Origin: Candidatus Thioglobus sp.
Lineage (GTDB): Bacteria > Pseudomonadota > Gammaproteobacteria > PS1 > Pseudothioglobaceae
Assembly (NCBI GenBank): GCA_029936515.1
Contig: JAPYSK010000001.1
Span: 14,079-78,078, forward strand
Direction of reading: 5' to 3'
DNA: 64,000 nt
Shown here: positions 43,648 through 64,000 of the stretch, in pieces
Numbering within the stretch: the first letter of the stretch is position 1
Layout of the letters: every line of letters starts with the position of its first letter
The notes under the pieces: generated by a model
Seen by the model: only the letters and a program-made list of their open reading frames with translations
Told to the model about the DNA's origin: nothing
The model's database searches: none
Translations under genes and position numbers: made by a program

Positions 43648-43763
43648 AATTAATTCAAACCCATTAAATAATCAAATCATCGATAAATTAAAAACAATTT
43701 ATTATGACACTTTTTTTTAAAGAACGCGGATTTTAATATAATTTAATACTATATTTAACAAAC

Positions 43764-44048: not shown

Positions 44049-44075
44049 GAAAAAGGAGTATCTAAAAGTTAGTAG

Positions 44076-44603: not shown

Positions 44604-44667
44604 ATTTAAAAAAATAATACCTTATTAAAATCTATATTTTAACTTTAAAATTTGCTATTTATGTTTC

Positions 44668-44835: not shown

Positions 44836-44854
44836 ATATAATTCCAGTAAAACA

Positions 44855-44895
44855 TGCTTTAGTTGTAAGGTAGGAGTAACCTAACAACTAAAGCA
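44855..44895. other. Long stem-loop in intergenic DNA
   Basis: TGCTTTAGTTGTAAGG / CCTAACAACTAAAGCA, 16-bp stem with 1 mismatch, loop TAGGAGTAA. Confidence 0.65.
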
Positions 44896-45230
44896 GGAAC
44901 CTCATTGCCAAGCGGAGAGAGAATGACAAAAATACTCGAGGTTTTTTAAAAAACTTTTTACATACTTTAATTAACAATCTTTAGTAACATTGTTTTTAGC
45001 TATCAGAGAATAATTAAATTTTTATAAATAATTACCAAATTCAAGTTACAACGTAAAGGGGTTGTCGTTGCAATTTCTCCAATAAACTAAAAACAATGTC
45101 TTCATCATAGGCGCTGAGAGTAAATATCAAATGTTTTATAGGTGAAGTTTTGGTGGAGAATTTATGAAGATTCTCTTTTTAATTTGTTTTTAAACTACAA
45201 TATTATCTTTTCTCTTTAAATCTGACCTAA

Positions 45231-45899
45231 ATGCAGCACATACTAATCATTGAAGACGATAGAATAATTGCTGAAAGCATTGAGTTTATCCTTGAAAAAG
45301 ACTCATTCAGTTGTCAGTGGTTTAATAATGGTAGCGAATCTCTTAATTACCTCGATAACAACAAGGTTGATCTTATACTTCTTGATGTAGGCTTGCCAGA
45401 TATGAATGGCTTTGATGTGCTTCGTAAAGTTCGTATTAAATCAAACATACCAGTAATTATTATCTCAGCTAGAGATGACGAATCAGACCAAGTGCTGGGT
45501 CTTGAGGGATTAGGAGCTAATGCATATGTAACAAAACCTCTGAGCCCAAGACTGGTTGTAGCGCATGTTCGCTCACAGCTTAGACATCTTCGCTCAGACA
45601 AGAAAACTAGTGAATCGAAATTCAGTATCAATCAAGCACTTCAGAGAGTTATTTTTCATGATCAAGAGCTTACATTAACGCCTGCTGAATTTAAAATCTT
45701 ATCCCTACTAATTAAAAAACCTAACAGAGTTCATTCTAGGGAATATTTAATGAATATTATCTGGGATAGACCTCATGGATCAGACCTTAAGACCATCAAT
45801 ACACATATTAAATCTATCCGTAAACGCCTTAACGAGATTGATTCAGAAAACGACTATATAGAGACTCACAGAGGTATTGGTTATAGTCTTATTGAATGA
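45231..45899 (+). CDS. creB: OmpR-family response regulator, CreB-like
   Basis: ILIIEDD, LDVGLPDMNG (phospho-Asp), winged HTH LTPAEFKIL, IETHRGIGYS; paired with a CreC-like kinase. Confidence 0.75.
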   Translation: MQHILIIEDDRIIAESIEFILEKDSFSCQWFNNGSESLNYLDNNKVDLILLDVGLPDMNGFDVLRKVRIKSNIPVIIISARDDESDQVLGLEGLGANAYVTKPLSPRLVVAHVRSQLRHLRSDKKTSESKFSINQALQRVIFHDQELTLTPAEFKILSLLIKKPNRVHSREYLMNIIWDRPHGSDLKTINTHIKSIRKRLNEIDSENDYIETHRGIGYSLIE

Positions 45900-47350: not shown

Positions 47351-47481
47351 CATTTAATTGCCTTTTCAGATGGAAGTGTAAATCATCATAAGATGTTGTA
47401 AAATTTTATTTTCAATCTTTAAACAAAGTTAATTTTTATGGTATTATTCGCCAGTTTTATTCCGAAAACCTAACAGAAAAT

Positions 47482-48243
47482 ATGAAAATAATCATCCCTA
47501 TCAAACGTGTCCTTGACCCTTACACCCAAGCACGAATCAACAAGCAAACACAACTAGTTGATTTAACCAATGCAAAAATGGCAATGAATCCTTTTTGCGA
47601 GATTGCTGTTGAAGAGGCATTAACCCTTAAAGAAAGTGGCAGCGCTAACGAAACAATTGTAGTTAGTATCGGCACTGACAAAACAGTAGACACCCTTAGA
47701 ACTGCACTGGCGATGGGCGTTGATCGAGCTATTTTCATTAAGACTGAAACAGATTTAGATTTACAGCCATTACACGTTGCTAAGATTTTAGCCAATATTA
47801 TCAATCGCGAACAAGCTGATCTAATCATCATGGGTAAGCAAGCTGTTGATAATGATAATAACCAAACTGGTCAAATTCTCTCAGGCCTTCTAGATTACTC
47901 ACTTGGAACATTCATTTCTAAATTTGATTTAAGTAGTGACGCTAAGAGTGTAGAGGTTTGCCGTGAAATTGACTCCGGAATAGAAACTAGGAAACTTAAT
48001 CTACCTTCAATAGTTACAGTCGATTTAAGGCTAAATGAACCTAGATATGCTTCATTACCAAACATTATGAAGGCAAGGTCTAAGCCTTTAGAGACAATTG
48101 AAATAGAAAGCCTTGGTATTGACATCACACCGAGAATTAAAGTTATTAGTGTTGAAGAGTCTGGAACTAAAGATAGAGCCTCTAAACAGATTAGCTCTGC
48201 TGAAGAATTTTTCTCCGAGTTAAATCAATTAGGAGTCCTATAA
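47482..48243 (+). CDS. etfB: Electron transfer flavoprotein beta subunit
   Basis: IKRVLDP, MNPFCEIAVEEAL, GKQAVDNDNNQTG, DLRLNEPRYASLPNIMKA. Confidence 0.95.
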   Translation: MKIIIPIKRVLDPYTQARINKQTQLVDLTNAKMAMNPFCEIAVEEALTLKESGSANETIVVSIGTDKTVDTLRTALAMGVDRAIFIKTETDLDLQPLHVAKILANIINREQADLIIMGKQAVDNDNNQTGQILSGLLDYSLGTFISKFDLSSDAKSVEVCREIDSGIETRKLNLPSIVTVDLRLNEPRYASLPNIMKARSKPLETIEIESLGIDITPRIKVISVEESGTKDRASKQISSAEEFFSELNQLGVL

Positions 48244-49169
48244 TGTCTGCACTTATTCTAATTGAACTCAACGGCTCTGAAGTTAGTGCTAATAGCAGAG
48301 CTGCAATAACAGCAGCTTCTGAACTTTCTGATAGCATAGACGCCTTAGTGCTTACAAATGATTCGGCACACTCTACTCCAGTTGCATCTCTGAGTGGCAT
48401 CAACACAGTAAAAATGATCGTTAGTCCTGAATTGGAGCATCCCAGTGTTGAAGTTGCTAGTAAGCTAGTAGCAGAGGCAATGAGTGGTTATAAATATTTA
48501 ATCTCTGGATCGTCAACCTTTAGTAAAAATATTTTACCAAGAGTTGGCGCCTATCTAGATGTTCAACCTATATCTGATGTTTGTGAAATTAAATCAAATA
48601 ACACATTTGTTCGCCCATTATATGCCGGTAACATTATGGCAACAGTTGAGTCAAATGATGAGACTATGTTGTTAACTGTTAGAGCTACTGCTTTTGAGCA
48701 TAGCCCTGATGGTGGCTCAGCAGCAGTTGAGAATTTGTCACCATCTATCCCCGAGTCAAACTCTATCTTTGTTTCTCTTCAGGAATCTCAATCAGAGCGG
48801 CCTGAGCTAACAACAGCCGAGAGAATTGTTTCTGGTGGACGTGGACTTGGATCAAAAGAAAACTTTGCCCTAATTGAGCAATTAGCTGACAAGTTAGACG
48901 CAGCAGTTGGTGCTTCTAGAGCTGCGGTTGATGCAGGCTTTATTTCGAATGACTACCAAGTTGGACAAACAGGTAAAGTTGTTGCACCTAAATTGTATTT
49001 AGCTGTTGGCATTTCTGGTGCCATTCAACATCTTGCTGGCATGAAAGACTCTCAGGTCATTGTAGTGATAAATAGTGATCCAGATGCGCCTATGTCTAGA
49101 ATGGCTGATTTAGTATGGCAGACTGATTTGTTTGACGCTTTAAAAGATCTCAATGATTACACCCAATAG
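48243..49169 (+). CDS. etfA: Electron transfer flavoprotein alpha subunit
   Basis: RPLYAGN, VSGGRG, GASRAAVD, QVGQTGK, GISGAIQHLAGM. Confidence 0.96.
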   Translation: MSALILIELNGSEVSANSRAAITAASELSDSIDALVLTNDSAHSTPVASLSGINTVKMIVSPELEHPSVEVASKLVAEAMSGYKYLISGSSTFSKNILPRVGAYLDVQPISDVCEIKSNNTFVRPLYAGNIMATVESNDETMLLTVRATAFEHSPDGGSAAVENLSPSIPESNSIFVSLQESQSERPELTTAERIVSGGRGLGSKENFALIEQLADKLDAAVGASRAAVDAGFISNDYQVGQTGKVVAPKLYLAVGISGAIQHLAGMKDSQVIVVINSDPDAPMSRMADLVWQTDLFDALKDLNDYTQ

Positions 49170-49180
49170 GGATACAAATA

Positions 49181-50800
49181 ATGGAAAGAGAGTCAATTGA
49201 GTATGATGTTGTAGTTGTTGGAGGAGGCCCTTCGGGCTTAGCTTCGGCATGCAAACTAAAACAGCTTAATCCCGAACTCTCTGTTTGTTTACTAGAAAAA
49301 GGCTCTGAAATAGGCTCTCACATCATTTCTGGCGCTGTCTTTGAACCTCAAACCTTGTTTGACCTTTTCCCAGAAGAGGCAAAAAATTGTCCTACACTTA
49401 AAACCTCTGTAGTTAAGGATGATCTTTATTGGTTCACCAATAATAATAAGAGCATAAAAGTCCCCACTTGGTTAATGCCAAAAAGCCTTCATAACAAAGG
49501 TAATTACATCATCTCACTAGGAGAGCTTTGTCAATGGATTGCCGAACGAGCAATAAACCTTGGTGTCGATATTTTCCCTGGATTTCCTGCCCAAAGCTAC
49601 TTGACTGATTTAAATGGTAGGGTTTGTGGTATCTCTACTGGTGATATGGGTATAGACAAGGAGGGAAATCAAAAAGGTACCTTCACACCAGGAATGGATA
49701 TACTTGCAAAGCAAACAATTTTTGCAGAAGGCGCAAGGGGTCACTTAGGAAAAAAATTAATAAAAGAATTTAGCTTAGATGAGGGGAAAACACCCCAACA
49801 TTTTGCTATTGGCTTTAAAGAAATCTGGGAAGTTGACAATAATAAACATAGTCCCGGAGATGTTGTACATACTATGGGATGGCCACTTAATGGTGGAACA
49901 TCAGGTGGAGGCTTCCTTTATCATTTCGAAAACAATCGAATTGCAGTCGGTCTAATCGTTGACCTAAACTATTCTAATACTCATCACAGCCCTTTTCAAG
50001 AATTTCAGCAATACAAGCAACATCCATCAATCAAACAATTTCTTGATTCTGGTAAACGTGTCTCGTATGGCGCAAGAGCAATTACAAAAGGCGGCATTAA
50101 CTCTCTTGTAAAAATGGAGTTTGATGGTGGAATGATTATTGGATGTGACGCTGGAACACTTAACCCTAGCAAGATAAAAGGCAGTCATTGCGCTCTTCAG
50201 TCAGGCATTCTTGCTGCAGAGTATATTAATAAGCTGCTTTTAGAAGAGATCTGTGATTTTGATGATTTATTTAAAAATAGTGCTCTATATAAAGAACTCT
50301 ATAAATCAAGAAACTTTAGTGGCGCTATGCATAAATTTGGCTTTTATGCTGGTGCAGCCTATAACTTTATTGAGTCGAACATTTTTCGTAACAAATTGCC
50401 GATTACTATTAAAGATGAAAAGAGAGATTGTGATTCCTTAAAGACAACTAAAGCCTCAAAAATAAAGACATACCCTGCCCCTGACAATTTATTAAGTTTT
50501 GATATTACCTCTTCTTTATTCCTATCTGGAACTAACCATGAAGAAGACCAACCCGTTCATCTAAAGCTTACTGACCCTAACATTCCACTTGATTACAATA
50601 ACAAAATTTTTAACGAACCAGCTCAAAGGTATTGCCCAGCAGGTGTTTATGAAATTATTGAAAAAGATGGGGCTGATTATTTTCAGATAAATGCTCAGAA
50701 TTGCCTTCATTGCAAGACATGTGACATTAAAGACCCGTCACAGAACATCAATTGGACTCCTCCCGAAGGTGGTGGTGGACCAAACTATATTGGGATGTAG
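49181..50800 (+). CDS. ETF:ubiquinone oxidoreductase
   Basis: GGGPSG, LEKGSEIGSHIISGA, RYCPAGVYE, QNCLHCKTCDIKDP (4Fe-4S), EGGGGPNY. Confidence 0.95.
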   Translation: MERESIEYDVVVVGGGPSGLASACKLKQLNPELSVCLLEKGSEIGSHIISGAVFEPQTLFDLFPEEAKNCPTLKTSVVKDDLYWFTNNNKSIKVPTWLMPKSLHNKGNYIISLGELCQWIAERAINLGVDIFPGFPAQSYLTDLNGRVCGISTGDMGIDKEGNQKGTFTPGMDILAKQTIFAEGARGHLGKKLIKEFSLDEGKTPQHFAIGFKEIWEVDNNKHSPGDVVHTMGWPLNGGTSGGGFLYHFENNRIAVGLIVDLNYSNTHHSPFQEFQQYKQHPSIKQFLDSGKRVSYGARAITKGGINSLVKMEFDGGMIIGCDAGTLNPSKIKGSHCALQSGILAAEYINKLLLEEICDFDDLFKNSALYKELYKSRNFSGAMHKFGFYAGAAYNFIESNIFRNKLPITIKDEKRDCDSLKTTKASKIKTYPAPDNLLSFDITSSLFLSGTNHEEDQPVHLKLTDPNIPLDYNNKIFNEPAQRYCPAGVYEIIEKDGADYFQINAQNCLHCKTCDIKDPSQNINWTPPEGGGGPNYIGM

Positions 50801-51763
50801 CTATTTACATTGATTAGCTGTAATTACCACTGTATTAACGATCTCATCGACGCTACATCCTCGTGATAAATCATTAACTGGCTTTGCAAGCCCCTGAAGG
50901 ATTGGTCCAATTGCTTTTGCACCAGAAAATCGCTGAACAAGTTTGTAGCCAATATTAGCTGCATCTAGGTTAGGAAAAATCAATACATTTGCAGGTGGAA
51001 CAAAAGCAGTTTCTGGATATTTAATCTTTAATACGTCTTTATCCAAAGCAGCATCAAGCTGTATATTACCAACAATATCAATGTTTGGCAGTCTAGATTT
51101 AAGGATATCAGTTGCAAGCCTTACTTTGTCAACTTGTAGGTGTTTAGCGCTTTGATTTGTAGAAAATGAAAGCATAGCTATTTTTGGCTCACTTTCAAGT
51201 AAAGATTGGGCTGTTTTAAATGCGCTATGTGCAATTTCAGCTAACTCTTCAGAACTAGGGTCTATATTCATAGCGCAGTCTGAAAAGATCATATTCTCAC
51301 CATATATTTGATGATTTTGATCAAATACCATTAGGAATAAACTTGATACAAGCTTACTGTCATTAGAGACACCTATAATTCGTAGAGCATTACTTAATAC
51401 TTCCTGGCTTGGTGTAATGGCACCTGTAACAACGCCATCCACATCGCCTCTATATAGAGCAACCATTGCAAATACACTTGGGTTTGAAACTAGCTCTAAA
51501 GCTTCATTAAGATCAATACCCTTATGCTTTCTTCTTTCATAAAAAGTTTTGGCATACTCCAGCTTCAAATCTTCATCTTCAGGATTAATGAATTCAATGC
51601 CATGAGTTGTGTCAGTTTTTGCGTCAAGTAAAACGATTTTGGCAATTTTTTGGTTTGCAAGAAGCTTAGCCGCCTCTAGAACGCGAGCATCATTAGATTC
51701 GGGCAATAAAATACGTGGATATCTGACTTTTGCTCTATTCGTTAAATCTTCTACTAACGCCAT
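50801..51763 (-). CDS. pta: Phosphate acetyltransferase (short form)
   Basis: ILLPESNDARV, FSDCAMNIDP, AMLSFST, QLDAAL, FPNLDAANIGYK, GPILQGLAKPVNDLSRG. Confidence 0.93.
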   Translation of the reverse strand: MALVEDLTNRAKVRYPRILLPESNDARVLEAAKLLANQKIAKIVLLDAKTDTTHGIEFINPEDEDLKLEYAKTFYERRKHKGIDLNEALELVSNPSVFAMVALYRGDVDGVVTGAITPSQEVLSNALRIIGVSNDSKLVSSLFLMVFDQNHQIYGENMIFSDCAMNIDPSSEELAEIAHSAFKTAQSLLESEPKIAMLSFSTNQSAKHLQVDKVRLATDILKSRLPNIDIVGNIQLDAALDKDVLKIKYPETAFVPPANVLIFPNLDAANIGYKLVQRFSGAKAIGPILQGLAKPVNDLSRGCSVDEIVNTVVITANQCK

Positions 51764-51942: not shown

Positions 51943-52890
51943 GTGAATAAGAAGCTTTATCAAACTGTTATAGACTATATCAATAATAAAATCACTAGTG
52001 GAGAGCTATCAATTGGTGATGTTATTCCTTCTGAATCTCAACTTTCAAAGCGATTAAATGTGAGTATTGGAACTGTCAGAAAAGCCATCGATAAGCTTGA
52101 AAATAGTAATATACTTTTTCGTCATCATGGTAAAGGAACATATGTAAACTTAAACTTAAAAACTATGAAAACTGACTATAAAAAAGAGCGCTCTGACCTT
52201 GCCGCTGCTTTTAGGTGGGCCGCAAGACTTAATATGCATGAAGCTGTTGCAAATCACTTCAGCTTGGCAGTTTCAGATGATGGCTCACAATTCCTATTAA
52301 ATCCTATCGGGATGAATTTTTCTCAGATTTGTGCAAGTGACCTTATTCTTCTAGATTCTAATGACCCAACAACAATGTCACAACCCAATGCCCCTGATCC
52401 TTCAGCTTGGGCTATACACGGGGCAATGCATAGAAATAATCCTCAAGCCAGATGTATTCTTCATGTCCATCCTAAATATGCAACCATTCTCGCCAGTCTT
52501 GAAGATAAGACCATGAAGCCTATCGATCAAAACACAATGCGCTTTTATGAAAAGGTATCAATTGATCATGACTATAGCGGTATGGGTCTTGGCAAAGAGG
52601 CTGAGAGATTAAGCACTATCTTGGGTGATAATTCTGTTCTGTTGATGGGTAATCATGGAGTTCTGACCGCTGCTAAGACGGTAGCCAAAGCGTTTGACGA
52701 CCTTTATTACTTTGAACGCTCCTGTGAAAATTTAATTGGGGCTTATCAAACTGGTAAAAACTTACACTTAGTAAGTCATGAGATTGCTACAAAAACGGCT
52801 CAGCAATGGCAAGACTATGACGCCTCAGACCTTCACTTTGATGCATTAAAAAGAATCTTGGACAAGGAAGAGCCTGACTACAAAATTTAG
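51943..52890 (+). CDS. GntR winged-HTH fused to a class II aldolase/adducin domain
   Basis: Residues 1-68 GntR (IPSESQLSKRLNVSIGTVRKAIDKL...GKGTYV); residues 75-315 aldolase II (NHFS, ILHVHP, GNHGV zinc ligands). Confidence 0.88.
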   Translation: MNKKLYQTVIDYINNKITSGELSIGDVIPSESQLSKRLNVSIGTVRKAIDKLENSNILFRHHGKGTYVNLNLKTMKTDYKKERSDLAAAFRWAARLNMHEAVANHFSLAVSDDGSQFLLNPIGMNFSQICASDLILLDSNDPTTMSQPNAPDPSAWAIHGAMHRNNPQARCILHVHPKYATILASLEDKTMKPIDQNTMRFYEKVSIDHDYSGMGLGKEAERLSTILGDNSVLLMGNHGVLTAAKTVAKAFDDLYYFERSCENLIGAYQTGKNLHLVSHEIATKTAQQWQDYDASDLHFDALKRILDKEEPDYKI

Positions 52891-52928
52891 CTCTTAAAAT
52901 TATATAAATTTATCGACAAGGAGTAGTA

Positions 52929-54176
52929 ATGTCAAACAACAATGTCTCATTAGACGTGAACTATGTAAAAGCGCAATTTCCAGCCTTTAATGACCCCTTA
53001 AGTGCCAAATGGTCTTTTTTTGAAAATGCCGGTGGAAGTTACGTTCCTAATAACGTCATCGAGCGTTTAAATTATTTTATGACCTCAACAAAGGTTCAGC
53101 CTTATGCCGAGTTTGATACCTCTGCAATTGCTGGAGATAATATGGATCAAGCAACTAATTTGTTTGCTGAAATGATTAATGTACAGAATGATGAAATCAT
53201 TATTGGAGGCTCTACAACGATAAATATGTACGTATTGTCTAATGCAATGAGAAGTCTTTTAAAGCCAGGTGATGAAGTAATTGTTACCAATCAAGACCAT
53301 GAAGCTAATGTTGGAGCATGGCGAAGGCTCGCCGAGCACGGTATGGTTATCAAGGAATGGAAAATCAATACAAAAACTGCTGAACTTGAGATTGAAGATT
53401 TAAAATCTTTATTGTCAGAAAAAACTAAAATTGTCGCGGTCACTCATTGCTCTAACATTGTGGGTTCAATAAATGACCTTAAATCCATTGCAAAACTGGT
53501 TCATGAGTATGACGCTTATATTATTGGTGATGGTGTCTCTTATGCACCCCATGGATTTCCTGATGTAAAAGACCTTGATGTTGATTTTTACGCATTTAGC
53601 CTCTATAAGACTTACGGCCCCCACTTAGGTCTTCTTTATGGGAAAAAAGCGATTCTAGACAAACTACCGAATCAAAATCATGAATTTCTAGAGGGAGATG
53701 TCCCCTACACTCTTAATCCAGGCGGCCCAAATCATGAAGAGTTGTCCTGTTTAATTGGCGTATATGAGTATTTTAATAACTTATTTGAGCATCACTTTCC
53801 AGGAGAGGATGGCTCTGTTAGAGACAAAATTGAAAAAATTAATGAATTGATTGCAAAGCATGAACAAGAAATAGCAAACCCCCTTCTCGAATATATAAGC
53901 TCTCGAGATGACATTAAACTTATCGGAAAAAACAAAATAGAGAATAAAAATAGAGCGCCAACGATTGCCTTTACTATGGACAATAAGTCATCAAAGGAGC
54001 TCAGTAGTGATCTTGTTAAACATGGCATTGCAACAAGGAATGACAACTTCTATGCATGGCGATGCTTAAAGGCTTTAGGAATAGATGTTGATGATGGTGT
54101 TGTAAGAACAAGTATGGTTCACTACAATACTCATGAAGATGTAAATAATCTAATCGAAGCCCTAAAGAAGATTTAA
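52929..54176 (+). CDS. Class V PLP-dependent enzyme (cysteine desulfurase-like, no catalytic Cys)
   Basis: FENAGGS, DHEAN, VTHCSNIVG, DGVSYAPH, FSLYKTYGPHLG (PLP Lys). Confidence 0.85.
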   Translation: MSNNNVSLDVNYVKAQFPAFNDPLSAKWSFFENAGGSYVPNNVIERLNYFMTSTKVQPYAEFDTSAIAGDNMDQATNLFAEMINVQNDEIIIGGSTTINMYVLSNAMRSLLKPGDEVIVTNQDHEANVGAWRRLAEHGMVIKEWKINTKTAELEIEDLKSLLSEKTKIVAVTHCSNIVGSINDLKSIAKLVHEYDAYIIGDGVSYAPHGFPDVKDLDVDFYAFSLYKTYGPHLGLLYGKKAILDKLPNQNHEFLEGDVPYTLNPGGPNHEELSCLIGVYEYFNNLFEHHFPGEDGSVRDKIEKINELIAKHEQEIANPLLEYISSRDDIKLIGKNKIENKNRAPTIAFTMDNKSSKELSSDLVKHGIATRNDNFYAWRCLKALGIDVDDGVVRTSMVHYNTHEDVNNLIEALKKI

Positions 54177-54202
54177 AGAGGTTAATCCGAGGTTTTTCAT
54201 TG

Positions 54203-55027
54203 TCAAAGTTTTTTATACAAGGTAGGAAACATTTTTCCAGATAAATCGTCACCATTTTGGTAACCATTTGCCTCCATTATTGCCCTTTCATCTTGGGCCC
54301 AATCACCTCGATACTCAACCCTAGAACCTTCTTTTGCCATTCTCAGAGTATATCGATGAATATCTTTTTTTGGAGTAACTTCATTCAAGCTTCCGTGCAA
54401 AGTTCGCATATCAAAAAAGACACAATCACCCAATTCAAGGTCCCACTGTAGAAATTCATAGTTGTCCTTATTTTCAAGTATATCTGGCGTTATATCGTAT
54501 GTCTTTCCATTCACCTCGCCGGCTTCTCCATCAATTGGATGTCCTTCTTGAAATCGTGTTCTTATATAAAGCTTATTCCAGAGATGGGAGCCCTTAATCC
54601 AAGCTATTCCCTCTTCTTTTGAGACAGGCTCGAGAGGGAGCCAGAGAACACACATAGTTCCTTCAAAATCAAAGTATGAGATGTCGTGATGAAAAGGAGC
54701 GCCTGATTTAGACCCTGACTCTCTATAAAACCAATTATCCATGACTAAATTAATTTTTTTAGCCTCTAAAAGCTCTGAGGCAATTTGAGCAGTAGGTGAA
54801 TTAAAAACAAAGTCTTTAAAGTCTTTATATAGATCCCATATCCAAAAATCTTCGAAGTAACCAGGTGCATCTTTATCCTTTGTATGTCTTACAAACCGTG
54901 GACTAGGATTATTTATATCCTCATTAATGCCATTTCTAAGCTTTTCAATCCATTGCTTTTCAAACTTACCTTTTATTAAAACAGCACCATCCTTATTAAA
55001 TTGATTAATTTCAGCTTGAGATAGCAT
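54203..55027 (-). CDS. PhyH-family Fe(II)/2OG dioxygenase
   Basis: PFHHDISY (HxD), LWLPLEPV, KGSHLW, RTLHGS, RYTLR. Confidence 0.85.
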   Translation of the reverse strand: MLSQAEINQFNKDGAVLIKGKFEKQWIEKLRNGINEDINNPSPRFVRHTKDKDAPGYFEDFWIWDLYKDFKDFVFNSPTAQIASELLEAKKINLVMDNWFYRESGSKSGAPFHHDISYFDFEGTMCVLWLPLEPVSKEEGIAWIKGSHLWNKLYIRTRFQEGHPIDGEAGEVNGKTYDITPDILENKDNYEFLQWDLELGDCVFFDMRTLHGSLNEVTPKKDIHRYTLRMAKEGSRVEYRGDWAQDERAIMEANGYQNGDDLSGKMFPTLYKKL

Positions 55028-55299: not shown

Positions 55300-55412
55300 A
55301 ATTTTCTCCGATTAAATTAAGCAATATATTAACAGAATTAAATTACCTAATGCCTTAAAAGTGAGTACAATTTTTGGATATATTACAATAATTGTATGAT
55401 ATAAATACATAT

Positions 55413-55796
55413 ATGAAAAAACTAATACTAATCTCACTTTTAACTCTTGGATTTATAAACTTCTCCTTTGCTGGAGGTGACGATAGAGATCAAGAATTGC
55501 CATTAAATTCGCTCAATACAGTGGCTGATGAAGACGCTTCATTATTGGCAGAATCCAATCAAAATATACAAGCTTCTGAGACTAATACTTCTGATTTAGA
55601 ACAACTTCTTAAAGAAATTGAAAAAGATCTCAATGAGTCAGATGAGCTTGATCAGAAAATACAGGATAAGGGCTATATTGAAATCTTCAAAGAAAACTAT
55701 ATAGATTCATATTCAGGGCGCTTTATATTGCTTGGAGTTTTCGTCCTTTTACTGTTTTTTATGCTTATCTTCAGTATGTTTTTTTCAAGAAAGTGA
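55413..55796 (+). CDS. Hypothetical exported/membrane-anchored protein
   Basis: Signal peptide MKKLILISLLTLGFINFSFA, acidic helical middle, C-terminal TM helix ending in SRK. Confidence 0.65.
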   Translation: MKKLILISLLTLGFINFSFAGGDDRDQELPLNSLNTVADEDASLLAESNQNIQASETNTSDLEQLLKEIEKDLNESDELDQKIQDKGYIEIFKENYIDSYSGRFILLGVFVLLLFFMLIFSMFFSRK

Positions 55797-56091: not shown

Positions 56092-57165
56092 ATGATTAGA
56101 AATAAATTGATACTTATGATGGTAGCAACACTACTCGTTTTTAGTGGTTCGAGTTCAATTGCTGCAGATGAAAAAGTCATCAAGTGGAAACTGGCGATGA
56201 CATGGCCTGCTGGCTTACCACCTTTCGCATGGACTGTTACACGTTTTGCTGACAATGTAGAGGCGATGAGTGGTGGTCGAATGACAATTCGTGTTGATGA
56301 TAAAAATAAACACAAAGCTGCCTTGGGCATACTTGATATGGTCAAAGCTGGTCAGTATGAGATGGGTCATTCAGCCTCTTACTATTGGAAAGGCAAGGAC
56401 ATTAATACTATGCCATTTACAACTATGCCTTTCGGTATGACAACATCTGAGCAAGACGCTTGGTACTTCTATGGTGGTGGTGAAGCACTCGCAAAAGAAG
56501 TGTTTGACAAACATGGAGTTAACCAGTATCAAGGTGGTAGTACAGGTAATCAGATGGGTGGATGGTTCCGTAAAGAAATCAATTCTGTTGACGACCTTAA
56601 AGGTCTGAAGATGCGAATTCCTGGTTTTGCCGGAGAAGTTTTGGCTGAACTTGGTGTTGCGGTAACTAACCTGCCTGCGGGTGAGTTATATACAGCACTA
56701 GAGCGTGGAACGATTGATGCGCTTGAGTGGGTTGGTCCAGGTATGGATATTAATATGGGCTTTCATAAGGTTGCACCATATTACTATACTGGTTGGCATG
56801 AGCCTGCAACAGACTTGCAGTTCTTAATCAACCAAGATGCTTGGAATGAGTTACCGGCTGATTTACAGGCTATTATCGAGGTAGCTATGGTTGATTCCAA
56901 GGCGCGTATGTATTGGGAAAACTTTGCCATGAGTGCCGAAGCTTGGTCTAAGATGGGAGTGGATTACCCTAACATTAAAGTTAGGACATTCCCTCCAGAA
57001 GTAATTGCTGAGATGAAGGCTGTTAATGCTCGACTTATCGCTGAAACTTCTGCAAGAGATCCTATGTTCAAAAAGATTATGGAATCTCAAGCGGAATTTA
57101 TGGCGAAGGCTCGAGAATGGACAAAGATGTCAGATTATTTGTACTTGAAAGACAATATCGAATAA
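56092..57165 (+). CDS. dctP: TRAP transporter substrate-binding protein (DctP family, TakP-like)
   Basis: KWKLAMTWP, GHSASYYWKGK, QMGGWFRKEI, LKMRIPG, ALERGTIDALEWVGP; GGAG RBS. Confidence 0.9.
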   Translation: MIRNKLILMMVATLLVFSGSSSIAADEKVIKWKLAMTWPAGLPPFAWTVTRFADNVEAMSGGRMTIRVDDKNKHKAALGILDMVKAGQYEMGHSASYYWKGKDINTMPFTTMPFGMTTSEQDAWYFYGGGEALAKEVFDKHGVNQYQGGSTGNQMGGWFRKEINSVDDLKGLKMRIPGFAGEVLAELGVAVTNLPAGELYTALERGTIDALEWVGPGMDINMGFHKVAPYYYTGWHEPATDLQFLINQDAWNELPADLQAIIEVAMVDSKARMYWENFAMSAEAWSKMGVDYPNIKVRTFPPEVIAEMKAVNARLIAETSARDPMFKKIMESQAEFMAKAREWTKMSDYLYLKDNIE

Positions 57166-57186
57166 TTTAAATCTTATGTGTTTTAT

Positions 57187-57217
57187 AATGCCCGCTATAA
57201 ACGCGGGCATTTTTTTT
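57187..57217 (+). terminator. Intrinsic terminator/attenuating hairpin after dctP
   Basis: AATGCCCGC/GCGGGCATT stem followed by a T-run. Confidence 0.85.
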
Positions 57218-57236
57218 ATTTTTACAGGCTAATGTA

Positions 57237-57752
57237 ATGCAATGGATTGAATCATTTTGCGATAAATTTTCTAAATACTTAGGTATCGTTATTGCGTTTT
57301 TGCTCATCATAATGATGATCAATGTTGCTTTCGATGCCTTGAATCGTTACCTAATGAACTCTAATTCAGTTGCTTTGCAAGAGATGGAGTGGCACCTATT
57401 CTCGGTAATTATATTGTTGGGATTATCTTATACACTGAATCAAGAGGGTCACGTACGTGTTGATGTTTTGTATACAAATTTTAGTGCAAAAAAGAAAGCC
57501 ATCATCAATATGATTGGTGTCATTACATTTGTTCTACCACTTAGCCTATTAGTAGCATTCGGCTCACTTGGCTTTGTTGCAGAGGCCTACAATTTTATGG
57601 AGCAGAGTGGAGATCCAGGCGGACTGCACTATCGTTTTATTATCAAGGGTTTAATTCCAACAGCGTTTTTTATTTTAATATTCATGTCAATTGGTTATTT
57701 TGCGCGTAACTATAACCTCTTAAAACGACTCAACTCAAGTTCAGACTCATGA
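57237..57752 (+). CDS. dctQ: TRAP small permease DctQ
   Basis: 4 TM; EMEWHLF, GHVRVDVLY. Confidence 0.92.
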   Translation: MQWIESFCDKFSKYLGIVIAFLLIIMMINVAFDALNRYLMNSNSVALQEMEWHLFSVIILLGLSYTLNQEGHVRVDVLYTNFSAKKKAIINMIGVITFVLPLSLLVAFGSLGFVAEAYNFMEQSGDPGGLHYRFIIKGLIPTAFFILIFMSIGYFARNYNLLKRLNSSSDS

Positions 57753-59098
57753 TAGGTTTAATAATGTTTTTTACTGGTCTAGGAATGCTATTTATTGGCT
57801 TTCCTGTTGCGTTTACTTTTGGAGCAGTATCGGTATTCTTTGGTATGGCTGCTGGCATCATTGAAGCTTTTAGTGATGGCGAGCTATTGGTTGACGGTAT
57901 AGATAATGGTTTGATGATGTTTGCGATGATGCCTCATCGTATTTGGAGCATTATGAATAACACCATTTTAATGGCAATTCCTTTGTTTATATTAATGGGC
58001 TTGATCCTGCAAAAAACTAAATTAGCAGAACGCCTACTTGAATCTATGGGTTATCTATTTGGTGAAATTAGAGGCGGCTTAGCAATCAGTACCGTTTTAG
58101 TCGGCTCTTTATTAGCAGCATCTACAGGGGTAGTTGGTGCCAGTGTTGTAGCTATGGGCGTTATTTCTTTGCCCGTTATGTTGAAGTATAACTATTCAAA
58201 AGGATTAGCTACTGGAACCATATGTGCAGCAGGAACCTTGGGTCAAATCATACCACCTTCTATTGTTCTTATTATATTGGGAGACGTCTTTAATGTGCCT
58301 GTTGGAGACCTCTTTAAAGCTGCACTTTTTCCTGGTCTAGTTCTGGTTGCAGCCTATACAGTCTATATTTTGATAGCAGCCTATTTGAATCCCCAGATCG
58401 GACCAGCAGTTAGAATTGAAAGGCAAGAAGGCGAAAGTAAAAAAAGCCAAGTCATTTCAGCATTATTTTCAATTATTCCGCCTTTGTCATTAATTGTTGT
58501 TGTTCTAGGTTCTATTTTTGCAGGCATTGCAACCCCTACAGAATCATCCGCTATTGGCTGTGTTGGTGCCGTAATACTAGCACTCTTATATAGAAAATTT
58601 TCCTTTTCAATGTTGATGGAATCTTCCATGGAAACGGTGAAAATAACGGCAATGGTTTTTGGCATTTTGATTGGTGCAACTGCATTTTCTATGGTCTTCA
58701 CCTATACCGGGGGTGACTTATTAATTGAGAACTTTATGCTCAGCTTGCCGGGTGATAAATGGGGCTTTATTATAATTGCAATGCTCGTTATTATGATCTT
58801 AGGATTTTTTATAGACTTTGTTGAAATTTCTTATATTATTGTTCCAATTTTGGTACCAATTTCAGATGCTATAGGCATTAACCCTATCTGGTTTGCCATT
58901 CTAATCGCTATGAATCTGCAAACTTCATTTTTAACGCCACCGTTTGGGTTCAGCTTGTTTTATTTGAAAGGGGTTGCTCCTAGCAACATAAAAACGACAG
59001 ATATTTATAAAGGCGTTATACCTTTTATATTAATACAGGTACTTGTATTAGCTTCTATTGTCTTTTATCCAGAATGGTATGGCACTTTTCAATATTAA
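57749..59098 (+). CDS. dctM: TRAP large permease DctM
   Basis: LMAIPLFILMG, AASTGVVGASV, GTLGQIIPPS, QTSFLTPPFG. Confidence 0.93.
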   Translation: MIGLIMFFTGLGMLFIGFPVAFTFGAVSVFFGMAAGIIEAFSDGELLVDGIDNGLMMFAMMPHRIWSIMNNTILMAIPLFILMGLILQKTKLAERLLESMGYLFGEIRGGLAISTVLVGSLLAASTGVVGASVVAMGVISLPVMLKYNYSKGLATGTICAAGTLGQIIPPSIVLIILGDVFNVPVGDLFKAALFPGLVLVAAYTVYILIAAYLNPQIGPAVRIERQEGESKKSQVISALFSIIPPLSLIVVVLGSIFAGIATPTESSAIGCVGAVILALLYRKFSFSMLMESSMETVKITAMVFGILIGATAFSMVFTYTGGDLLIENFMLSLPGDKWGFIIIAMLVIMILGFFIDFVEISYIIVPILVPISDAIGINPIWFAILIAMNLQTSFLTPPFGFSLFYLKGVAPSNIKTTDIYKGVIPFILIQVLVLASIVFYPEWYGTFQY

Positions 59099-59164: not shown

Positions 59165-60547
59165 ATGGACGTTAAAACCAAAACAACTTGGCAACAAGAT
59201 AAAGATCATTTTATTCATCCATGGACCGACTTTTCAACCTTTAAAGATGAAGGTTCGCTGGTTCTGACTGACGGTTCTGGAATAACCCTGACTGATAGCG
59301 AAGGACGACAGTTTATGGATGGCATAGGAGGTCTTTGGTGTGTAAATATCGGCTATGGTCGAGAAGAGATGGCAGATGCTATTGCCGAGCAAGCGCGGCG
59401 TATTCCTTATTTTTCTACCTTTGGACATCACACCACACCTCCAGCTGCAGCTTTAGCTGCAAAACTTGCAGAATTAGCACCAGGAAATTTAAATCATGTG
59501 TTTTATGGTTGTGGGGGTTCTGTAGCTAACGATACGGCTGTTCGCATTATTCACTTTTATTTTAATCAATTGGGGCAAAAAACTAAGAAGAAAATTATCA
59601 GTCGAATTGATGGTTACCACGGTAGCACCTATATGGCAATGTCAATTACTGGTGTTGAGTTTGATCATGTTGGTTTTGATGTTGACAATCAAATGGTTCA
59701 TCACATAAGTTGTCCGAACCCCTATCGACGTCCTGATGATATGAGTTTAGAGAATTTTTGTGACTCTAAAGTGCAAGAGTTGGAGGACAAAATATTAGAG
59801 CTTGGTGCCGATAATATTGCCGCTTTTTTTGCTGAACCAATACTGGGTGCCGGCGGTGTTATTGTACCGCCACCTGGCTATCACCGCAAAACCCAAGAGG
59901 TTTGTAATAAATATAATGTTCTTTATGTTTCTGATGAAGTGGTTACAGGCTTTGGTCGATTGGGCCATATGTTTGCCTCTAAAGACGAGTTTGATTTACA
60001 ACCAGATATCATTACTTGCGCTAAAGGCTTAACCTCCGGGTATCTACCACTAAGCGCAACAATACTATCAGACGATATTTATGATGTTATTAGTATCCCC
60101 CAGGCCAAAGGTGCTTTATTTACTCACGGCTTCACTTATTCTGGTCATCCTGTTTGCTGTGCGGCGGGGTTAAAGAATATTGAAATTATTGAAAGAGAGA
60201 ATCTGTGTGAACATGTAAACGATGTGGGTGATTACTTTGAGAGGCAACTAAAAACTCTAGAAGACCTCGATATTGTCGGCGAGGTACGTGGTAGAAAATT
60301 TATGATGTGCATTGAAAATGTTGCTGATAAACAAACAAAAGAGCTTCTTCATGAAGATGGTGAAGTTGGCACACGTATCGCCAACCACTGTCAAAATCGT
60401 GGTCTCATAGTTAGGCCTTTAGCGCATATGAATGTATTATCTCCTCCACTCGTGATGACACGAAAAGAGGTTGATAAAATGGTAAACATTTTGCGAGAAA
60501 GTATCATTGAAACAATTAGCGATTTATCGAATGACGGCTATTTATAA
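59165..60547 (+). CDS. Class III (omega-amine:pyruvate) aminotransferase, HinC-like
   Basis: GGLWCVNIGYG, GYHGST, FAEPILGAGG, DEVVTGFGR, TCAKGLTSGY, HGFTYSGHP. Confidence 0.9.
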   Translation: MDVKTKTTWQQDKDHFIHPWTDFSTFKDEGSLVLTDGSGITLTDSEGRQFMDGIGGLWCVNIGYGREEMADAIAEQARRIPYFSTFGHHTTPPAAALAAKLAELAPGNLNHVFYGCGGSVANDTAVRIIHFYFNQLGQKTKKKIISRIDGYHGSTYMAMSITGVEFDHVGFDVDNQMVHHISCPNPYRRPDDMSLENFCDSKVQELEDKILELGADNIAAFFAEPILGAGGVIVPPPGYHRKTQEVCNKYNVLYVSDEVVTGFGRLGHMFASKDEFDLQPDIITCAKGLTSGYLPLSATILSDDIYDVISIPQAKGALFTHGFTYSGHPVCCAAGLKNIEIIERENLCEHVNDVGDYFERQLKTLEDLDIVGEVRGRKFMMCIENVADKQTKELLHEDGEVGTRIANHCQNRGLIVRPLAHMNVLSPPLVMTRKEVDKMVNILRESIIETISDLSNDGYL

Positions 60548-60606
60548 GTGATTATTTAGAGTTTCTAAGTGCTAAAAATTTGTTGAAAGATAAAAAAGAA
60601 CATGAA

Positions 60607-61875
60607 ATGTTGACTAAAAAAATAGACACACTCGTAGTCGGTGCAGGGCAAGCAGGAATAGCCATGAGTGAACACCTAAGCAACTCAAACATACCTCACC
60701 TCGTTCTTGAGAGAAGCAGAATTGCAGAGCGCTGGCGTTCAGAGAGATGGGACACTCTGGTTGCTAATGGCCCTGCCTGGCATGATCGATTTCCGAATAT
60801 GGAGTTCCCTGATTTTGACCCCAATGGATTCCCTAATAAGGAGCAAGTTGCTGACTATTTTGTTGCGTACGCTGACATGATTAAAGCTCCAATTATTTGT
60901 GGTGTCGAGGTTTTGGAAGTTAAAAGGAATGATGGACGCCCAGGATTTCGTGTTGAAACCTCAGACGGTGTAATCGAAGCCAACAATGTGGTTGCCGCTA
61001 CAGGACCTTTTCAGTGCCCTTTGATTCCAGACCTTGTACCAGAAAATGAAGCAATAACACAAATCCATTCAAAAGACTACCACAATCCTGAGCAGTTGCC
61101 TGAAGGCGCAGTTCTGGTTGTAGGGGCAGGATCATCAGGGGCACAGATCGCTGATGAGCTTTTACTTGCAGGAAAATCTATTTATCTCTCTGTAGGCCCA
61201 CACGACCTTCCTCCGCGAAGCTATCGTGGACGTGATTTCGTCTGGTGGCTTGGTGTTCTCGGTAAATGGGAGGCGACCACTAGGGATCCAGAGATGGAAC
61301 ATGTCACCATAGCGGTGAGTGGTGCTCATGGAGGACATACGGTTGATTTTCGTCGTCTCGCTGGGCAAGGAATTACCCTACTAGGAAGAACACAGTCGTT
61401 TAAAAATAATGTGATGGGTTTTGCCTCTGATCTTACAAAAAATATTGCCAGCGGAAATGCATATACCCTATCACTACTTGACCAAGCTGACGCTTATGTG
61501 ATTCGTAATGGTCTCGACTTTCCAGAAGAGCCTGAAGCCCGCAAAGTGCTGCCAGACCCAAAATGTGTGACTAATCCTATTCTTGAGCTGAATCTTAAAG
61601 AAGCTGGAATAAACTCAATTGTCTGGGCAACAGGTTTTGATGTTGATTACAGCTGGTTAAAGGTTGACGCGTTAGATGAAAAAGGCAAGCCGAAACATGA
61701 GCGCGGTATTTCAGGCGAGTCGGGGGTTTATTTTCTTGGTCTTCCGTGGCAGTCACGTCGAGGTTCATCGTTCATCTGGGGCGTCTGGGAGGACGCTAAG
61801 TTTCTCACTGACCAGATAGCCTTGCGACGCAATTATCTCGACTTTGACGCTTCAGAAAGTGCCTCAAAGCTATAA
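60607..61875 (+). CDS. Flavin-dependent monooxygenase/oxidoreductase, HinF-like
   Basis: GAGQAG (FAD), VVAATG, QIHSKDY, GAGSSG (NADPH), VWATGF; ATG 60607 preferred. Confidence 0.87.
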   Translation: MLTKKIDTLVVGAGQAGIAMSEHLSNSNIPHLVLERSRIAERWRSERWDTLVANGPAWHDRFPNMEFPDFDPNGFPNKEQVADYFVAYADMIKAPIICGVEVLEVKRNDGRPGFRVETSDGVIEANNVVAATGPFQCPLIPDLVPENEAITQIHSKDYHNPEQLPEGAVLVVGAGSSGAQIADELLLAGKSIYLSVGPHDLPPRSYRGRDFVWWLGVLGKWEATTRDPEMEHVTIAVSGAHGGHTVDFRRLAGQGITLLGRTQSFKNNVMGFASDLTKNIASGNAYTLSLLDQADAYVIRNGLDFPEEPEARKVLPDPKCVTNPILELNLKEAGINSIVWATGFDVDYSWLKVDALDEKGKPKHERGISGESGVYFLGLPWQSRRGSSFIWGVWEDAKFLTDQIALRRNYLDFDASESASKL

Positions 61876-61912
61876 AACACATAGAACTAAATAGATTTAT
61901 AATGGAGACACA

Positions 61913-62326
61913 ATGACACACCAAAGAATTAGAAAATTTAACACCGCACAAATGTACCCAGGTAAGGGCATGGACAACGACCTTTGTATGGCTGTTAGGG
62001 CTGGAAACCGAGTATTTTTAAGAGGACAAACCTGCTTTGACTTGGATGGCAATATTACCGGCGTTGGAGATGCTAGAGCGCAAACAGAAAACGCAATGAG
62101 TTGTGTCAAGGTTCTACTTGAAGAGTCAGGCTCTAAGTTGGAGCATATCTGCAAAGTGACCATCTATATCACTGAGCGTGAATATCGCGAAGAGGTATAC
62201 GAGGTTGTTGGAAGGTGGCTTAAGGGTATTCATATCTGCTCAACTGGGTTAATTGTTAAAGGATTAGCGGTACCAGAGATGTTGATGGAAATTGATGTTG
62301 AGGCAATGATTCCAGAGGCTGAATAA
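61913..62326 (+). CDS. RidA/YjgF family protein, HinL-like
   Basis: AVRAGNRVFLRGQT, AQTENAM, ICKVTIY, STGLIVKGLA, MEIDVEA. Confidence 0.88.
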   Translation: MTHQRIRKFNTAQMYPGKGMDNDLCMAVRAGNRVFLRGQTCFDLDGNITGVGDARAQTENAMSCVKVLLEESGSKLEHICKVTIYITEREYREEVYEVVGRWLKGIHICSTGLIVKGLAVPEMLMEIDVEAMIPEAE

Positions 62327-62361
62327 ACACTAAATAAAGACAACTAAAAGGAGATATTGTT

Positions 62362-63039
62362 ATGACTTTTTCTGTTGCAGGTTTTTGCGAAAGAACGGGT
62401 ATGGTTGGGGTAGCTATAACCTCCTCGAGTATATCTGTAGCGAGTCGCTGTCCCTGGGTTCGAGCAGGGGTTGGTGCTGCAAGTACTCAAAATATTACTG
62501 ACCCAAGTTTGGGCGATGCAATGCTCGATTTAATTGCTAAGGGTTCAAGCTCCGAACAAGCAATTGAAATAGTTACTAAGGACCGCAAATTCATCGATTA
62601 TCGGCAATTAACTGTTATTGACAACAAAGGGCAAAGCTCAAGCTTTTCTGGTACAAAAACGCTCGGTACGCACTCAGTAGCTCAAGGTCATGATTGTATT
62701 GCTGCAGGAAATTTATTAATCAGTACTGAAATACCTCAGGCTATAGTTGATAATTTTTCTAAACACTCACACCTTCACCTTGCTGAGCGTTTACTACTGG
62801 CCTTAAAAGCTGGTCTTGATGCAGGCGGCGAAGAAGGCCCTATTCACTCGGCTGGAATCAAGGTTGCACATGAACACTCTTGGCCATTAGTTGACTTAAG
62901 AGTGGATTGGGCTGATGAGGAGCCAATTAATAAACTCATTGATCTGTGGCGAAACTACGAAGAACAAATGATGGATTACAATACTCGCGCTATAGACCCT
63001 AGAAGTGCTCCAAGCTATGGTGTCTCTGGAGACCTCTAG
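62362..63039 (+). CDS. DUF1028 family (Ntn-hydrolase-like) protein, HinH-like
   Basis: N-terminal MTFS, GVGAASTQ, YRQLTVID, AAGNLL, AGLDAGGE, DLRVDW. Confidence 0.85.
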   Translation: MTFSVAGFCERTGMVGVAITSSSISVASRCPWVRAGVGAASTQNITDPSLGDAMLDLIAKGSSSEQAIEIVTKDRKFIDYRQLTVIDNKGQSSSFSGTKTLGTHSVAQGHDCIAAGNLLISTEIPQAIVDNFSKHSHLHLAERLLLALKAGLDAGGEEGPIHSAGIKVAHEHSWPLVDLRVDWADEEPINKLIDLWRNYEEQMMDYNTRAIDPRSAPSYGVSGDL

Positions 63040-63040
63040 T

Positions 63041-64000
63041 ATGCCATTCAGTGCAGCATCAGAGAAAGACAGTAAAGCGATTGGACTCTTAAAAACATTA
63101 GTAGGGTTTGACACCACCAGCTATAACTCTAACCTTGGATTAATTGAATTCATTCAGTCCTATTTATCAAGTTATGACATTGATTCAACGTTGATACATG
63201 ATGAGAGCGGAAAAAAAGCCAACCTCTATGCAACCATTGGCAGAACAGATATTGGCGGAGTGATGCTCTCAGGGCACACCGATGTTGTACCTGTTGCTTC
63301 TCAAGACTGGGGCACTGATCCATTTTCATTGATAGAGTCTGATGGCAAGTTTTATGGACGTGGTAGCGCTGATATGAAGGGTTTTATTGCTTTAGTATTG
63401 AGTCGCGTTCCAGAGATGGTATCTTCAGAACTCACAAAACCAATCCATTTAGCGTTCTCTTATGATGAGGAGATAGGCTGCGTTGGTGTTCAGAGAATGC
63501 TGGATTTACTAGAGCATCAACACATCAAGCCAAGCTGCTGCATTATCGGTGAGCCAACCGGCATGGAGGTTGTTATTGGCCACAAAGGTAAGCACGCAAC
63601 TCGCGTAAAAGTTAGAGGTCATGCCTGTCACTCTGGGCAATCACCTTTAGGAGTTAATGCGATAGATTTTGCATCAGAATTAATCGTATATATTCGTAAA
63701 TTAGCTCACGAAAAAGCACAAAATGGGCCCTTTGATAAGGACTATGAGGTGCCCTATACTACCCTTCATACTGGCGTTATAGGAGGTGGAACGGCTCTCA
63801 ATATTGTGCCTAATTCGTGTCAGTTTGACTTTGAAATTCGACACCTTTACGAAGAAGATCCACAGCATTTATTAGATCAAATTGAGAACTTTGCTAGAGA
63901 CCATCTAGAAAACGAGATGCACTTAATTGATTCTGATACAGGTTTTAATTTTGAAACGCTAGCAACTTATCCAGGCTTACTAACCGATCCAGGTATAGAG
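63041..64000 (+). CDS. M20/ArgE-family amidohydrolase (acetylornithine deacetylase-like, HinG-like), truncated by window end
   Basis: Manual translation from ATG 63041: MPFSAASEKD...LSGHTDVVP...YGRGSADMKG...SYDEEIGC...IIGEPT...HKG; open to 64000. Confidence 0.9.
   Translation, partial: MPFSAASEKDSKAIGLLKTLVGFDTTSYNSNLGLIEFIQSYLSSYDIDSTLIHDESGKKANLYATIGRTDIGGVMLSGHTDVVPVASQDWGTDPFSLIESDGKFYGRGSADMKGFIALVLSRVPEMVSSELTKPIHLAFSYDEEIGCVGVQRMLDLLEHQHIKPSCCIIGEPTGMEVVIGHKGKHATRVKVRGHACHSGQSPLGVNAIDFASELIVYIRKLAHEKAQNGPFDKDYEVPYTTLHTGVIGGGTALNIVPNSCQFDFEIRHLYEEDPQHLLDQIENFARDHLENEMHLIDSDTGFNFETLATYPGLLTDPGIE

Follow-up and report, generated by a model that had tools for sequence, protein, structure and literature searches.

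A five-gene block in a marine Thioglobus genome probably encodes a reduced hin-type pathway from histamine to aspartate

We analysed a 64,000-nucleotide stretch of DNA from Candidatus Thioglobus sp. (contig JAPYSK010000001.1, positions 14,079 to 78,078; hereafter the window), the end of which carries a block of five genes (59165-64000, + strand) related to the histamine catabolic (hin) genes of Pseudomonas. Close homologues of these genes also carry the name Candidatus Thioglobus sp. (SUP05 group). Our principal finding is that the block probably encodes a reduced histamine-to-aspartate pathway, and to this reading of the whole proposed route we assign a probability of roughly 0.7. An initial annotation, made from the letters of the window alone, had proposed a hin-like cluster for histamine and imidazole-4-acetate catabolism in a marine streamlined bacterium, and this core reading holds by orthology, gene order and genomic context. 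SUP05 and Thioglobus bacteria, which abound in the ocean, are generally viewed as sulfur oxidisers with limited use of organic matter; a maintained, transcribed pathway would add biogenic amines to the nitrogen sources of SUP05. Histamine catabolism has been described mainly for Pseudomonas, where hin genes are reported to be common (PMC8231116), and our literature search found no paper tying Thioglobus to histamine use.

Window proteins were identified by comparison with Pfam and NCBIfam profiles. The block opens with a class-III aminotransferase of the omega-amine:pyruvate type (59165-60547; 460 amino acids (aa); Aminotran_3, PRK07036), followed by a flavin monooxygenase with two Rossmann motifs (60607-61875; 422 aa), a RidA-family protein (61913-62326; 137 aa; Ribonuc_L-PSP), a DUF1028 protein (62362-63039; 225 aa; DUF1028, 212 bits) and an M20/ArgE-like metallohydrolase (63041, or 63017, to the window end at 64000; Peptidase_M20 and M20_dimer, PRK07522). 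All are + strand open reading frames (ORFs) separated by 59, 37, 35 and about 1 nucleotides (nt), in agreement with the five families, common orientation and short gaps first described. The ORF list starts the monooxygenase at 60580; because its homologues are 415-422 aa long, the start is probably at 60607. The window end truncates the M20 gene at residue 320 of 394, and a complete copy is present in a near-identical metagenome contig (L001), where it is followed by convergent psuG and psuK (pseudouridine glycosidase and kinase), then by a 5'-nucleotidase and unrelated genes over 9 kb. The hin-like operon terminates at the M20 gene. The DUF1028 protein begins with MTFS, and an M/V-T-F-S start is found in 67 of 67 orthologues, confirming the N-terminal threonine of the initial annotation; this residue, Thr2, is likely to be the N-terminal nucleophile. 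Only one solved structure, PDB 2IMH, is related to this protein.

The last four genes of the block are predicted, from sequence comparison, to be orthologues of Pseudomonas hinF, hinL, hinH and hinG, respectively. In PAO1 these genes are PA5393 to PA5390, with hinD, hinA and hinC at PA0219-0221 and hinK at PA0218 (PMC8231116), and the P. putida U enzymes are described as an FAD monooxygenase of EC 1.14.13.5 (HinF), an enamine deaminase (HinL) and two amidases, HinH and HinG, the latter of EC 3.5.1.8 (PMC6467879). The composition and order of hinFLHG, which the initial annotation had given, are borne out by these papers and by the Pseudomonas loci that we compared. On the P. mendocina chromosome, hinFLHG, a divergent LysR gene (hinK) and genes for an aldehyde dehydrogenase (ALDH), an amino-acid permease and an aminotransferase (hinDAC) are all contiguous; the window proteins share 67% (HinF), 60% (HinL), 53% (HinH) and 46-47% (HinG) identity with those of P. 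mendocina, in the same gene order. At the head of the F-L-H-G loci of P. mendocina and five other Pseudomonas species is a gene whose product shares 67-68% identity with the window monooxygenase; four of the five keep the order monooxygenase-RidA-DUF1028-M20, which is rearranged in the fifth, P. bohemica. Both the window M20 protein and P. mendocina HinG match PRK07522, with equal scores.

An initial homologue search with the monooxygenase returned close marine relatives only (82% identity or more) and no Pseudomonas anchor, which was obtained through a search of 1.84 billion 50%-cluster representatives, tblastn against plasmids and a scan of species-representative genomes. The search of cluster representatives yielded a single full-length close representative (63% identity, 602 bits), with the next family at 44% and 363 bits, and this gap places the window monooxygenase in one tight orthologous family, in which the motifs GAGQAG and GAGSSG are invariant. 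Assignment to the MSMEG_0569/Nit1C flavin oxidoreductase family (TIGR04046) was rejected, as the window protein scores 357 bits against a cut-off of 498; P. mendocina HinF scores 358 bits. The genome scan gave 80 monooxygenase loci at 66-89% identity, from Thioglobus, Mesorhizobium, roseobacters, Paraburkholderia, Arthrobacter, Nonomuraea and the five Pseudomonas species, and their neighbours were clustered after antisense shadow ORFs of high-GC genomes had been filtered out. RidA was a neighbour in 61/80, DUF1028 in 58/80 and M20 in 48/80, so that the arrangement is far beyond chance. Together, these comparisons suggest with good confidence that the four genes constitute the lower pathway, which would lead from imidazole acetate to aspartate.

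The other recurrent neighbours in the 80 loci point towards histamine. LysR genes were present in 51, a trimethylamine-dehydrogenase-type flavoprotein of ~700 aa in 24 and an ALDH in 23, while GMC oxidoreductases (12), NCS1 permeases (10) and, in a few loci, copper amine oxidases and aspartase were rarer. The flavoproteins of the 24 loci are histamine dehydrogenase homologues. In the SUP05 single-cell genome AB-629-P17, this flavoprotein (L011 5644-7740, - strand) matches the histamine dehydrogenase of PDB 3K30 with 710 bits, against 480 bits for trimethylamine dehydrogenase, and 2.2 kb separate its gene from a set of hinFLHG genes, 78-90% identical to those of the window, that is present without the aminotransferase. 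On an Arthrobacter plasmid (L007), an ALDH, a primary-amine (copper amine) oxidase and a LysR gene are followed by monooxygenase-RidA-DUF1028-M20-aspartase. These histamine dehydrogenase and Arthrobacter contexts are the strongest non-experimental evidence that the module processes histamine-derived imidazole acetate. A hin-like module is also found with a GMC oxidoreductase, an ALDH and an NCS1 permease on Acetobacter pasteurianus plasmid pAPA01-020 (L006) and in about 12 Mesorhizobium-type loci, which suggests that an alcohol (imidazole ethanol/histaminol) is the point of entry in some bacteria.

The aminotransferase that opens the block is, judging by its profile matches, not an orthologue of HinC. 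It matches PRK07036 with 747 bits (cut-off 618) and PRK12403 with only 362 bits (cut-off 817), and shares 37% identity with HinC of P. mendocina; enzymes of the HinC type encoded within hin clusters (P. bohemica, Paraburkholderia and P. mendocina; L079, L084 and L098) match PRK12403 with 902-992 bits. A PRK12403-type aminotransferase adjoins an ALDH and a regulator in other Pseudomonas, and in P. putida this aminotransferase-ALDH pair comes directly after the malonate operon, an arrangement that we take PAO1 PA0208-0221 to share. The initial annotation had equated the window gene with hinC. That it is a hin-associated class-III aminotransferase stands, and that it is HinC-like by descent does not; the BLAST comparison with Hin proteins that had been suggested, run here on other Pseudomonas loci, likewise returned orthology for F, L, H and G and not for the aminotransferase. 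Loci that are separate elsewhere had also been described as merged in this organism. The aminotransferase does adjoin hinFLHG, as stated, and such linkage is not special to the window, given the contiguous hinFLHG-hinK-hinDAC of P. mendocina.

Association of the aminotransferase with hin genes was followed in 45 loci from a metagenome scan that used it as the query. At 94-100% identity, the TRAP transporter genes dctPQM precede the aminotransferase and hinFLHG, as in the window; one contig at 95% (L110) has the aminotransferase and hinFLHG with the TRAP genes absent. The 89-93% group has a form with an ABC transporter, a deacetylase and an ALDH. In the 71-78% group (L118, L119, L125), hinFLHG is followed by genes for a HinA-like permease and the aminotransferase, and the opposite strand encodes a HinD-like ALDH, an aspartase and a LysR protein; below about 68%, the hin association is mostly lost. 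Orthologues of at least 70% identity stood beside hinFLHG in every locus with informative flanks, some of them in genomes with HinD-, HinA-, HinK- and aspartase-like genes (L096, L117, L118, L125). L096, whose monooxygenase is 83% and aminotransferase 88% identical to those of the window, carries in series a PotD-type ABC transporter, M20b, Hist_deacetyl, an ALDH 59% identical to HinD, the aminotransferase, a divergent LysR gene and hinFLHG. PRK07036-like copies at 51-53% identity lie beside the module, with PotD-type ABC transporters, in Roseibium and Roseovarius. Because its close orthologues adjoin hin genes, the aminotransferase is very probably a non-orthologous functional replacement of HinC, as its genomic context implies. 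The ABC-deacetylase front end (L096 1-9825; also L115, L117, L124 and L134) includes an allantoate/N-carbamoyl-type M20 amidohydrolase together with a Hist_deacetyl protein resembling acetylpolyamine amidohydrolases, and hints that conjugated histamine (acetylhistamine, carcinine) could be its real substrate.

In the route that we propose, the PRK07036-type aminotransferase would transfer the side-chain amino group of histamine, or alternatively of a close 2-(imidazolyl)ethylamine, to pyruvate, yielding imidazole acetaldehyde and alanine (step 1). An unlinked ALDH, not encoded in the block, would convert the aldehyde to imidazole-4-acetate (step 2). As orthology to hinFLHG of Pseudomonas implies, the NAD(P)H/FAD monooxygenase (HinF), a putative imidazoleacetate 4-monooxygenase, would then hydroxylate the ring, RidA (HinL, an enamine/imine deaminase) and the DUF1028 N-terminal-Thr hydrolase (HinH, an amidase) would open and deamidate it to N-formylaspartate and ammonia, and the M20 hydrolase (HinG), a putative N-formyl-L-aspartate deformylase, would release formate and L-aspartate (step 3). 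All three histamine nitrogens would thereby be recovered, in alanine, ammonia and aspartate.

Several observations weigh against this route. With tblastn at E <= 1e-3, the 64 kb window contained no ALDH, amine permease, LysR, amine oxidase or aspartase gene, and none of these was present in the 9 kb downstream; as no ALDH or transporter is linked, step 2 and uptake depend on unseen genes. The family of the aminotransferase is broad, its closest solved relatives being generic amine:pyruvate transaminases, and homologues at 57-68% identity lie mostly in non-hin, polyamine/agmatine-type contexts, as in Halomonas, where those at 57-58% adjoin agmatine deiminase, ALDH and M20 genes. We know of no PRK07036-type enzyme with histamine activity, a point for which no targeted literature search was made. 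The Pseudomonas loci compared are proxies that have the published gene content and order of the characterised P. putida U AWA45227-45230 and PAO1 PA5390-5393. Lastly, in a sister genome (L094 2827-9871; also L095), the genes ahead of hinFLHG encode a pair of creatinase-like M24 proteins, a 1211-aa hydantoinase A/B fusion and a protein with DUF1989, and other feeder routes therefore exist.

The absence of HinD, HinA and HinK from the window had been recorded in the initial annotation, and searches with the P. mendocina proteins accordingly found no match anywhere in the 64 kb. Its suggestion that they may lie beyond position 64000 is refuted by the end of the operon and the psuG, psuK and 5'-nucleotidase genes that follow it. 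In sister genomes, HinD/HinA/HinK-type genes are located upstream of the aminotransferase. The relatives that possess the missing genes are close (aminotransferase 88-93%, monooxygenase 74-92% identical), which argues that the window block is a derived, reduced form. For the ALDH gap, an unlinked dehydrogenase is the simplest filler; P. putida has redundant HinD and HinE (PMC6467879). Ratios of nonsynonymous to synonymous substitution rates (dN/dS) between the window and the TRAP-type genome L010 were 0.04-0.09 for the aminotransferase (0.04), RidA, DUF1028 and M20 genes, and comparison with L096 gave similar values for all five genes. The block is thus under purifying selection and not decaying, also within the clade that lacks the ALDH, and all five genes were detected, at low depth, in four marine metatranscriptomes. 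Because sister lineages carry a regulator, transporter and dehydrogenase upstream of the same aminotransferase, we regard the block as a pared-down variant of a known pathway, still selected, in an ecologically important marine group.

Upstream of the block, on the + strand, lie dctP (56092-57165; a TakP-type TRAP binding protein), dctQ (57237-57752) and dctM (57749-59098), the last of which ends 66 nt before the aminotransferase; this TRAP operon (56092-59098) had gone unmentioned in the initial annotation. DctP shares about 65% identity with PDB 4PET and 5CM6, both of which were presumably crystallised with pyruvate, and is also related to the ketoacid-binding protein 7UG8 and to TakP (2HZK). 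DctP retains equivalents of all the TakP residues that contact the carboxylate and the bridging cation (Arg177, Tyr100, Glu214-Trp215 and Glu240), and alignment to 2HZK, 4PET and 5CM6 showed conservation of LKMRIPG, SYYWKG, LEWVGP and GWHEP. The likeness to TakP-type TRAP systems (Rhodobacter sphaeroides TakP, PDB 2HZK/2HZL; 4PET, 5CM6) concerns the neighbouring dctPQM only and not the hin-like genes. A small ORF of 134 aa (55392-55796; 127-131 aa in related contigs), with hydrophobic N- and C-terminal stretches, an acidic middle and no Pfam match, always precedes dctP in the clade (L099-L106) and directly precedes the aminotransferase in L110. The DctP family is conserved at 62-67% across unrelated phyla, and sister lineages (DctP 82-89%) have the same small ORF and dctPQM, after which come genes for a zinc alcohol dehydrogenase and malate synthase and none of the hin type. 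Conversely, dctPQM is absent from L110 (2385-4284; Ga0206679_10008356), in which the aminotransferase, 95% identical, starts about 58 nt after the small ORF; L110 and the window represent a presence/absence polymorphism of the whole TRAP operon. Given the conservation of the family across phyla, the occurrence of dctPQM without hin genes and that of the hin block without TRAP, we predict that dctPQM is a separate, general-purpose importer of 2-oxo acids (pyruvate type) that adjoins the hin-like block in a subclade without being an ancestral component of it. Ectoine or taurine catabolism, which the combination of a TRAP transporter with a class-III aminotransferase might evoke, was rejected, as the binding protein is TakP-like and the TRAP operon is independent of the block.

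Transcript data set dctP apart from the genes that follow it. Just after dctP is a strong terminator-like hairpin on the + strand (57187-57211) with a nine-pair stem that includes 6 G-C pairs, then TTTTTTTATTT, and metatranscriptome depth falls 10- to 100-fold after dctP, so that the hairpin probably attenuates transcription into dctQM and beyond. On seawater metatranscriptome contigs, dctP (region 56092-57216, with the hairpin) reached depths of hundreds to thousands, versus 2-50 for its neighbours, which places it among the most highly transcribed genes here, at 10-1000 times the expression of the hin genes. No transcript spanning the dctM-aminotransferase junction was found among the assembled metatranscriptome contigs, which were too short. 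A search of 51-64 kb for riboswitches and leader RNAs found none, the only Rfam match being a sub-threshold one at the dctP terminator, and a promoter scan was uninformative because it returned no more sites than shuffled sequence did.

Other explanations for the block differ in where they place its substrate. We consider it unlikely that the pathway is a lower one only, in which free imidazole-4-acetate would be imported, possibly via the TRAP transporter, and converted to aspartate while the aminotransferase served putrescine, cadaverine or a beta/omega-amino acid. Such an arrangement would explain why no ALDH or amine transporter is linked and why L011 has hinFLHG without the aminotransferase; it also draws on the agmatine-type surroundings of the Halomonas homologues and on the closeness, on the same strand, of a transporter type that carries carboxylates. 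However, aminotransferase orthologues of at least 70% are always beside hinFLHG, in some clusters with HinD-, HinA- and HinK-like genes, and strong purifying selection acts on the gene within the reduced clade. The transporter, for its part, retains every TakP residue for a 2-oxo acid and cation, and each of the two operons occurs without the other. That F-L-H-G in the marine clade degrades another heterocyclic acid, such as a methylated imidazole acetate or a hydantoin/imidazolone derivative, seems to us quite improbable. The module enzymes of marine organisms are not known to have been assayed, and the creatinase-like, hydantoinase A/B and DUF1989 genes that the module follows in L094/L095 (monooxygenase 83%) lend this idea some colour, but the hydantoinase group and the monooxygenase gene of L094 are 129 nt apart. 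The 67% identity, inside one tight family, with the protein at the HinF position in Pseudomonas, the histamine dehydrogenase gene beside the module in a clade member at 81%, and the complete amine-ALDH-LysR front end beside it at 83% favour histamine-derived imidazole acetate instead. The L094/L095 genes may themselves form a creatinine/hydantoin-type nitrogen-scavenging cluster at the same variable site.

The remaining alternatives concern the TRAP genes. If dctPQM, the aminotransferase and hinFLHG formed one eight-gene operon, the role of the transporter would be to bring in pyruvate or another 2-oxo acid as amino acceptor, or else an imidazole 2-oxo/acetic acid. The genes share a strand, the 66-nt spacer between dctM and the aminotransferase holds no terminator-like site, at least 8 metagenome contigs, 94-100% identical, keep the junction, and HinC-type enzymes take pyruvate as acceptor (PMC6467879). 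We nevertheless judge a single operon highly improbable in light of the L110 variant, the lineages with DctP at 82-89% that have no hin genes downstream, the lack of an assembled transcript across the junction, the 10- to 1000-fold excess of dctP expression and the spread of the DctP family across phyla, which fits a general-purpose transporter. A broader proposal starts from the four front ends seen in the clade: one consists of histamine dehydrogenase, one joins an ABC transporter to a deacetylase, an ALDH and a transaminase, and in the other two a transaminase stands by itself or downstream of the TRAP genes. It holds that one marine clade swaps non-homologous front ends onto a constant module at a single chromosomal site, with the TRAP transporter functionally coupled in the window version, through import of pyruvate as amino acceptor or through uptake of imidazole acetate by cation-bridged binding. 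Taken jointly, this proposal is decidedly unlikely; if it were true, histamine and its derivatives (for example zooplankton neurotransmitter, acetylhistamine or carcinine) would be a regular SUP05 nitrogen currency. The reduced histamine-to-aspartate pathway with an independent TRAP operon remains our preferred reading.

Compared with known systems, the window shares with Pseudomonas hin (PAO1; P. putida U HinABCDFLHGIJK) an aminotransferase first step and the lower four families in the same order at 46-67% identity. It differs from them in that its aminotransferase is a paralogue (PRK07036, not PRK12403; 37%), in the lack of a nearby HinD, HinA, HinK/HinB/HinJ regulator or HinI aspartase, and in its host, an uncultured low-GC marine lineage of sulfur oxidisers. 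Actinobacterial clusters (Arthrobacter L007; Brevibacterium, PMC6467879) have the same monooxygenase-RidA-DUF1028 core, with a monooxygenase 68% identical, but use a copper amine oxidase for the first step, link ALDH, LysR and aspartase genes, and have an M20 protein of a different subfamily. Homologues of the histamine dehydrogenases of Nocardioides simplex (PDB 3K30) and Rhizobium sp. 4-9 (PDB 6DE6) flank the same lower module in 24/80 genomes, whereas the window has a transaminase in place of such a gene. Recognition that a second aminotransferase family (PRK07036) very probably substitutes for HinC in several marine lineages would improve the annotation of histamine catabolism, and the varied front ends on one conserved lower module are a natural example of modular pathway evolution.

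Farther upstream, at 51943-55027, a 315-aa protein (NCBIfam PRK07490) joins a GntR DNA-binding domain to a class II aldolase/adducin domain, an unusual regulator architecture, and is followed by a class-V aminotransferase and a convergent PhyH-family dioxygenase. This trio is kept upstream of the TRAP genes in relatives (L010, L110, L142). Just upstream of it, 47482-51763 encodes electron-transfer flavoprotein beta and alpha, its quinone oxidoreductase (ETF:quinone oxidoreductase) and phosphate acetyltransferase, preceded by a second PhyH dioxygenase (41181-41996) and an alanine racemase (40045-41121). These neighbours (40045-51763) suggest a region rich in organic-nitrogen and organic-acid catabolism.

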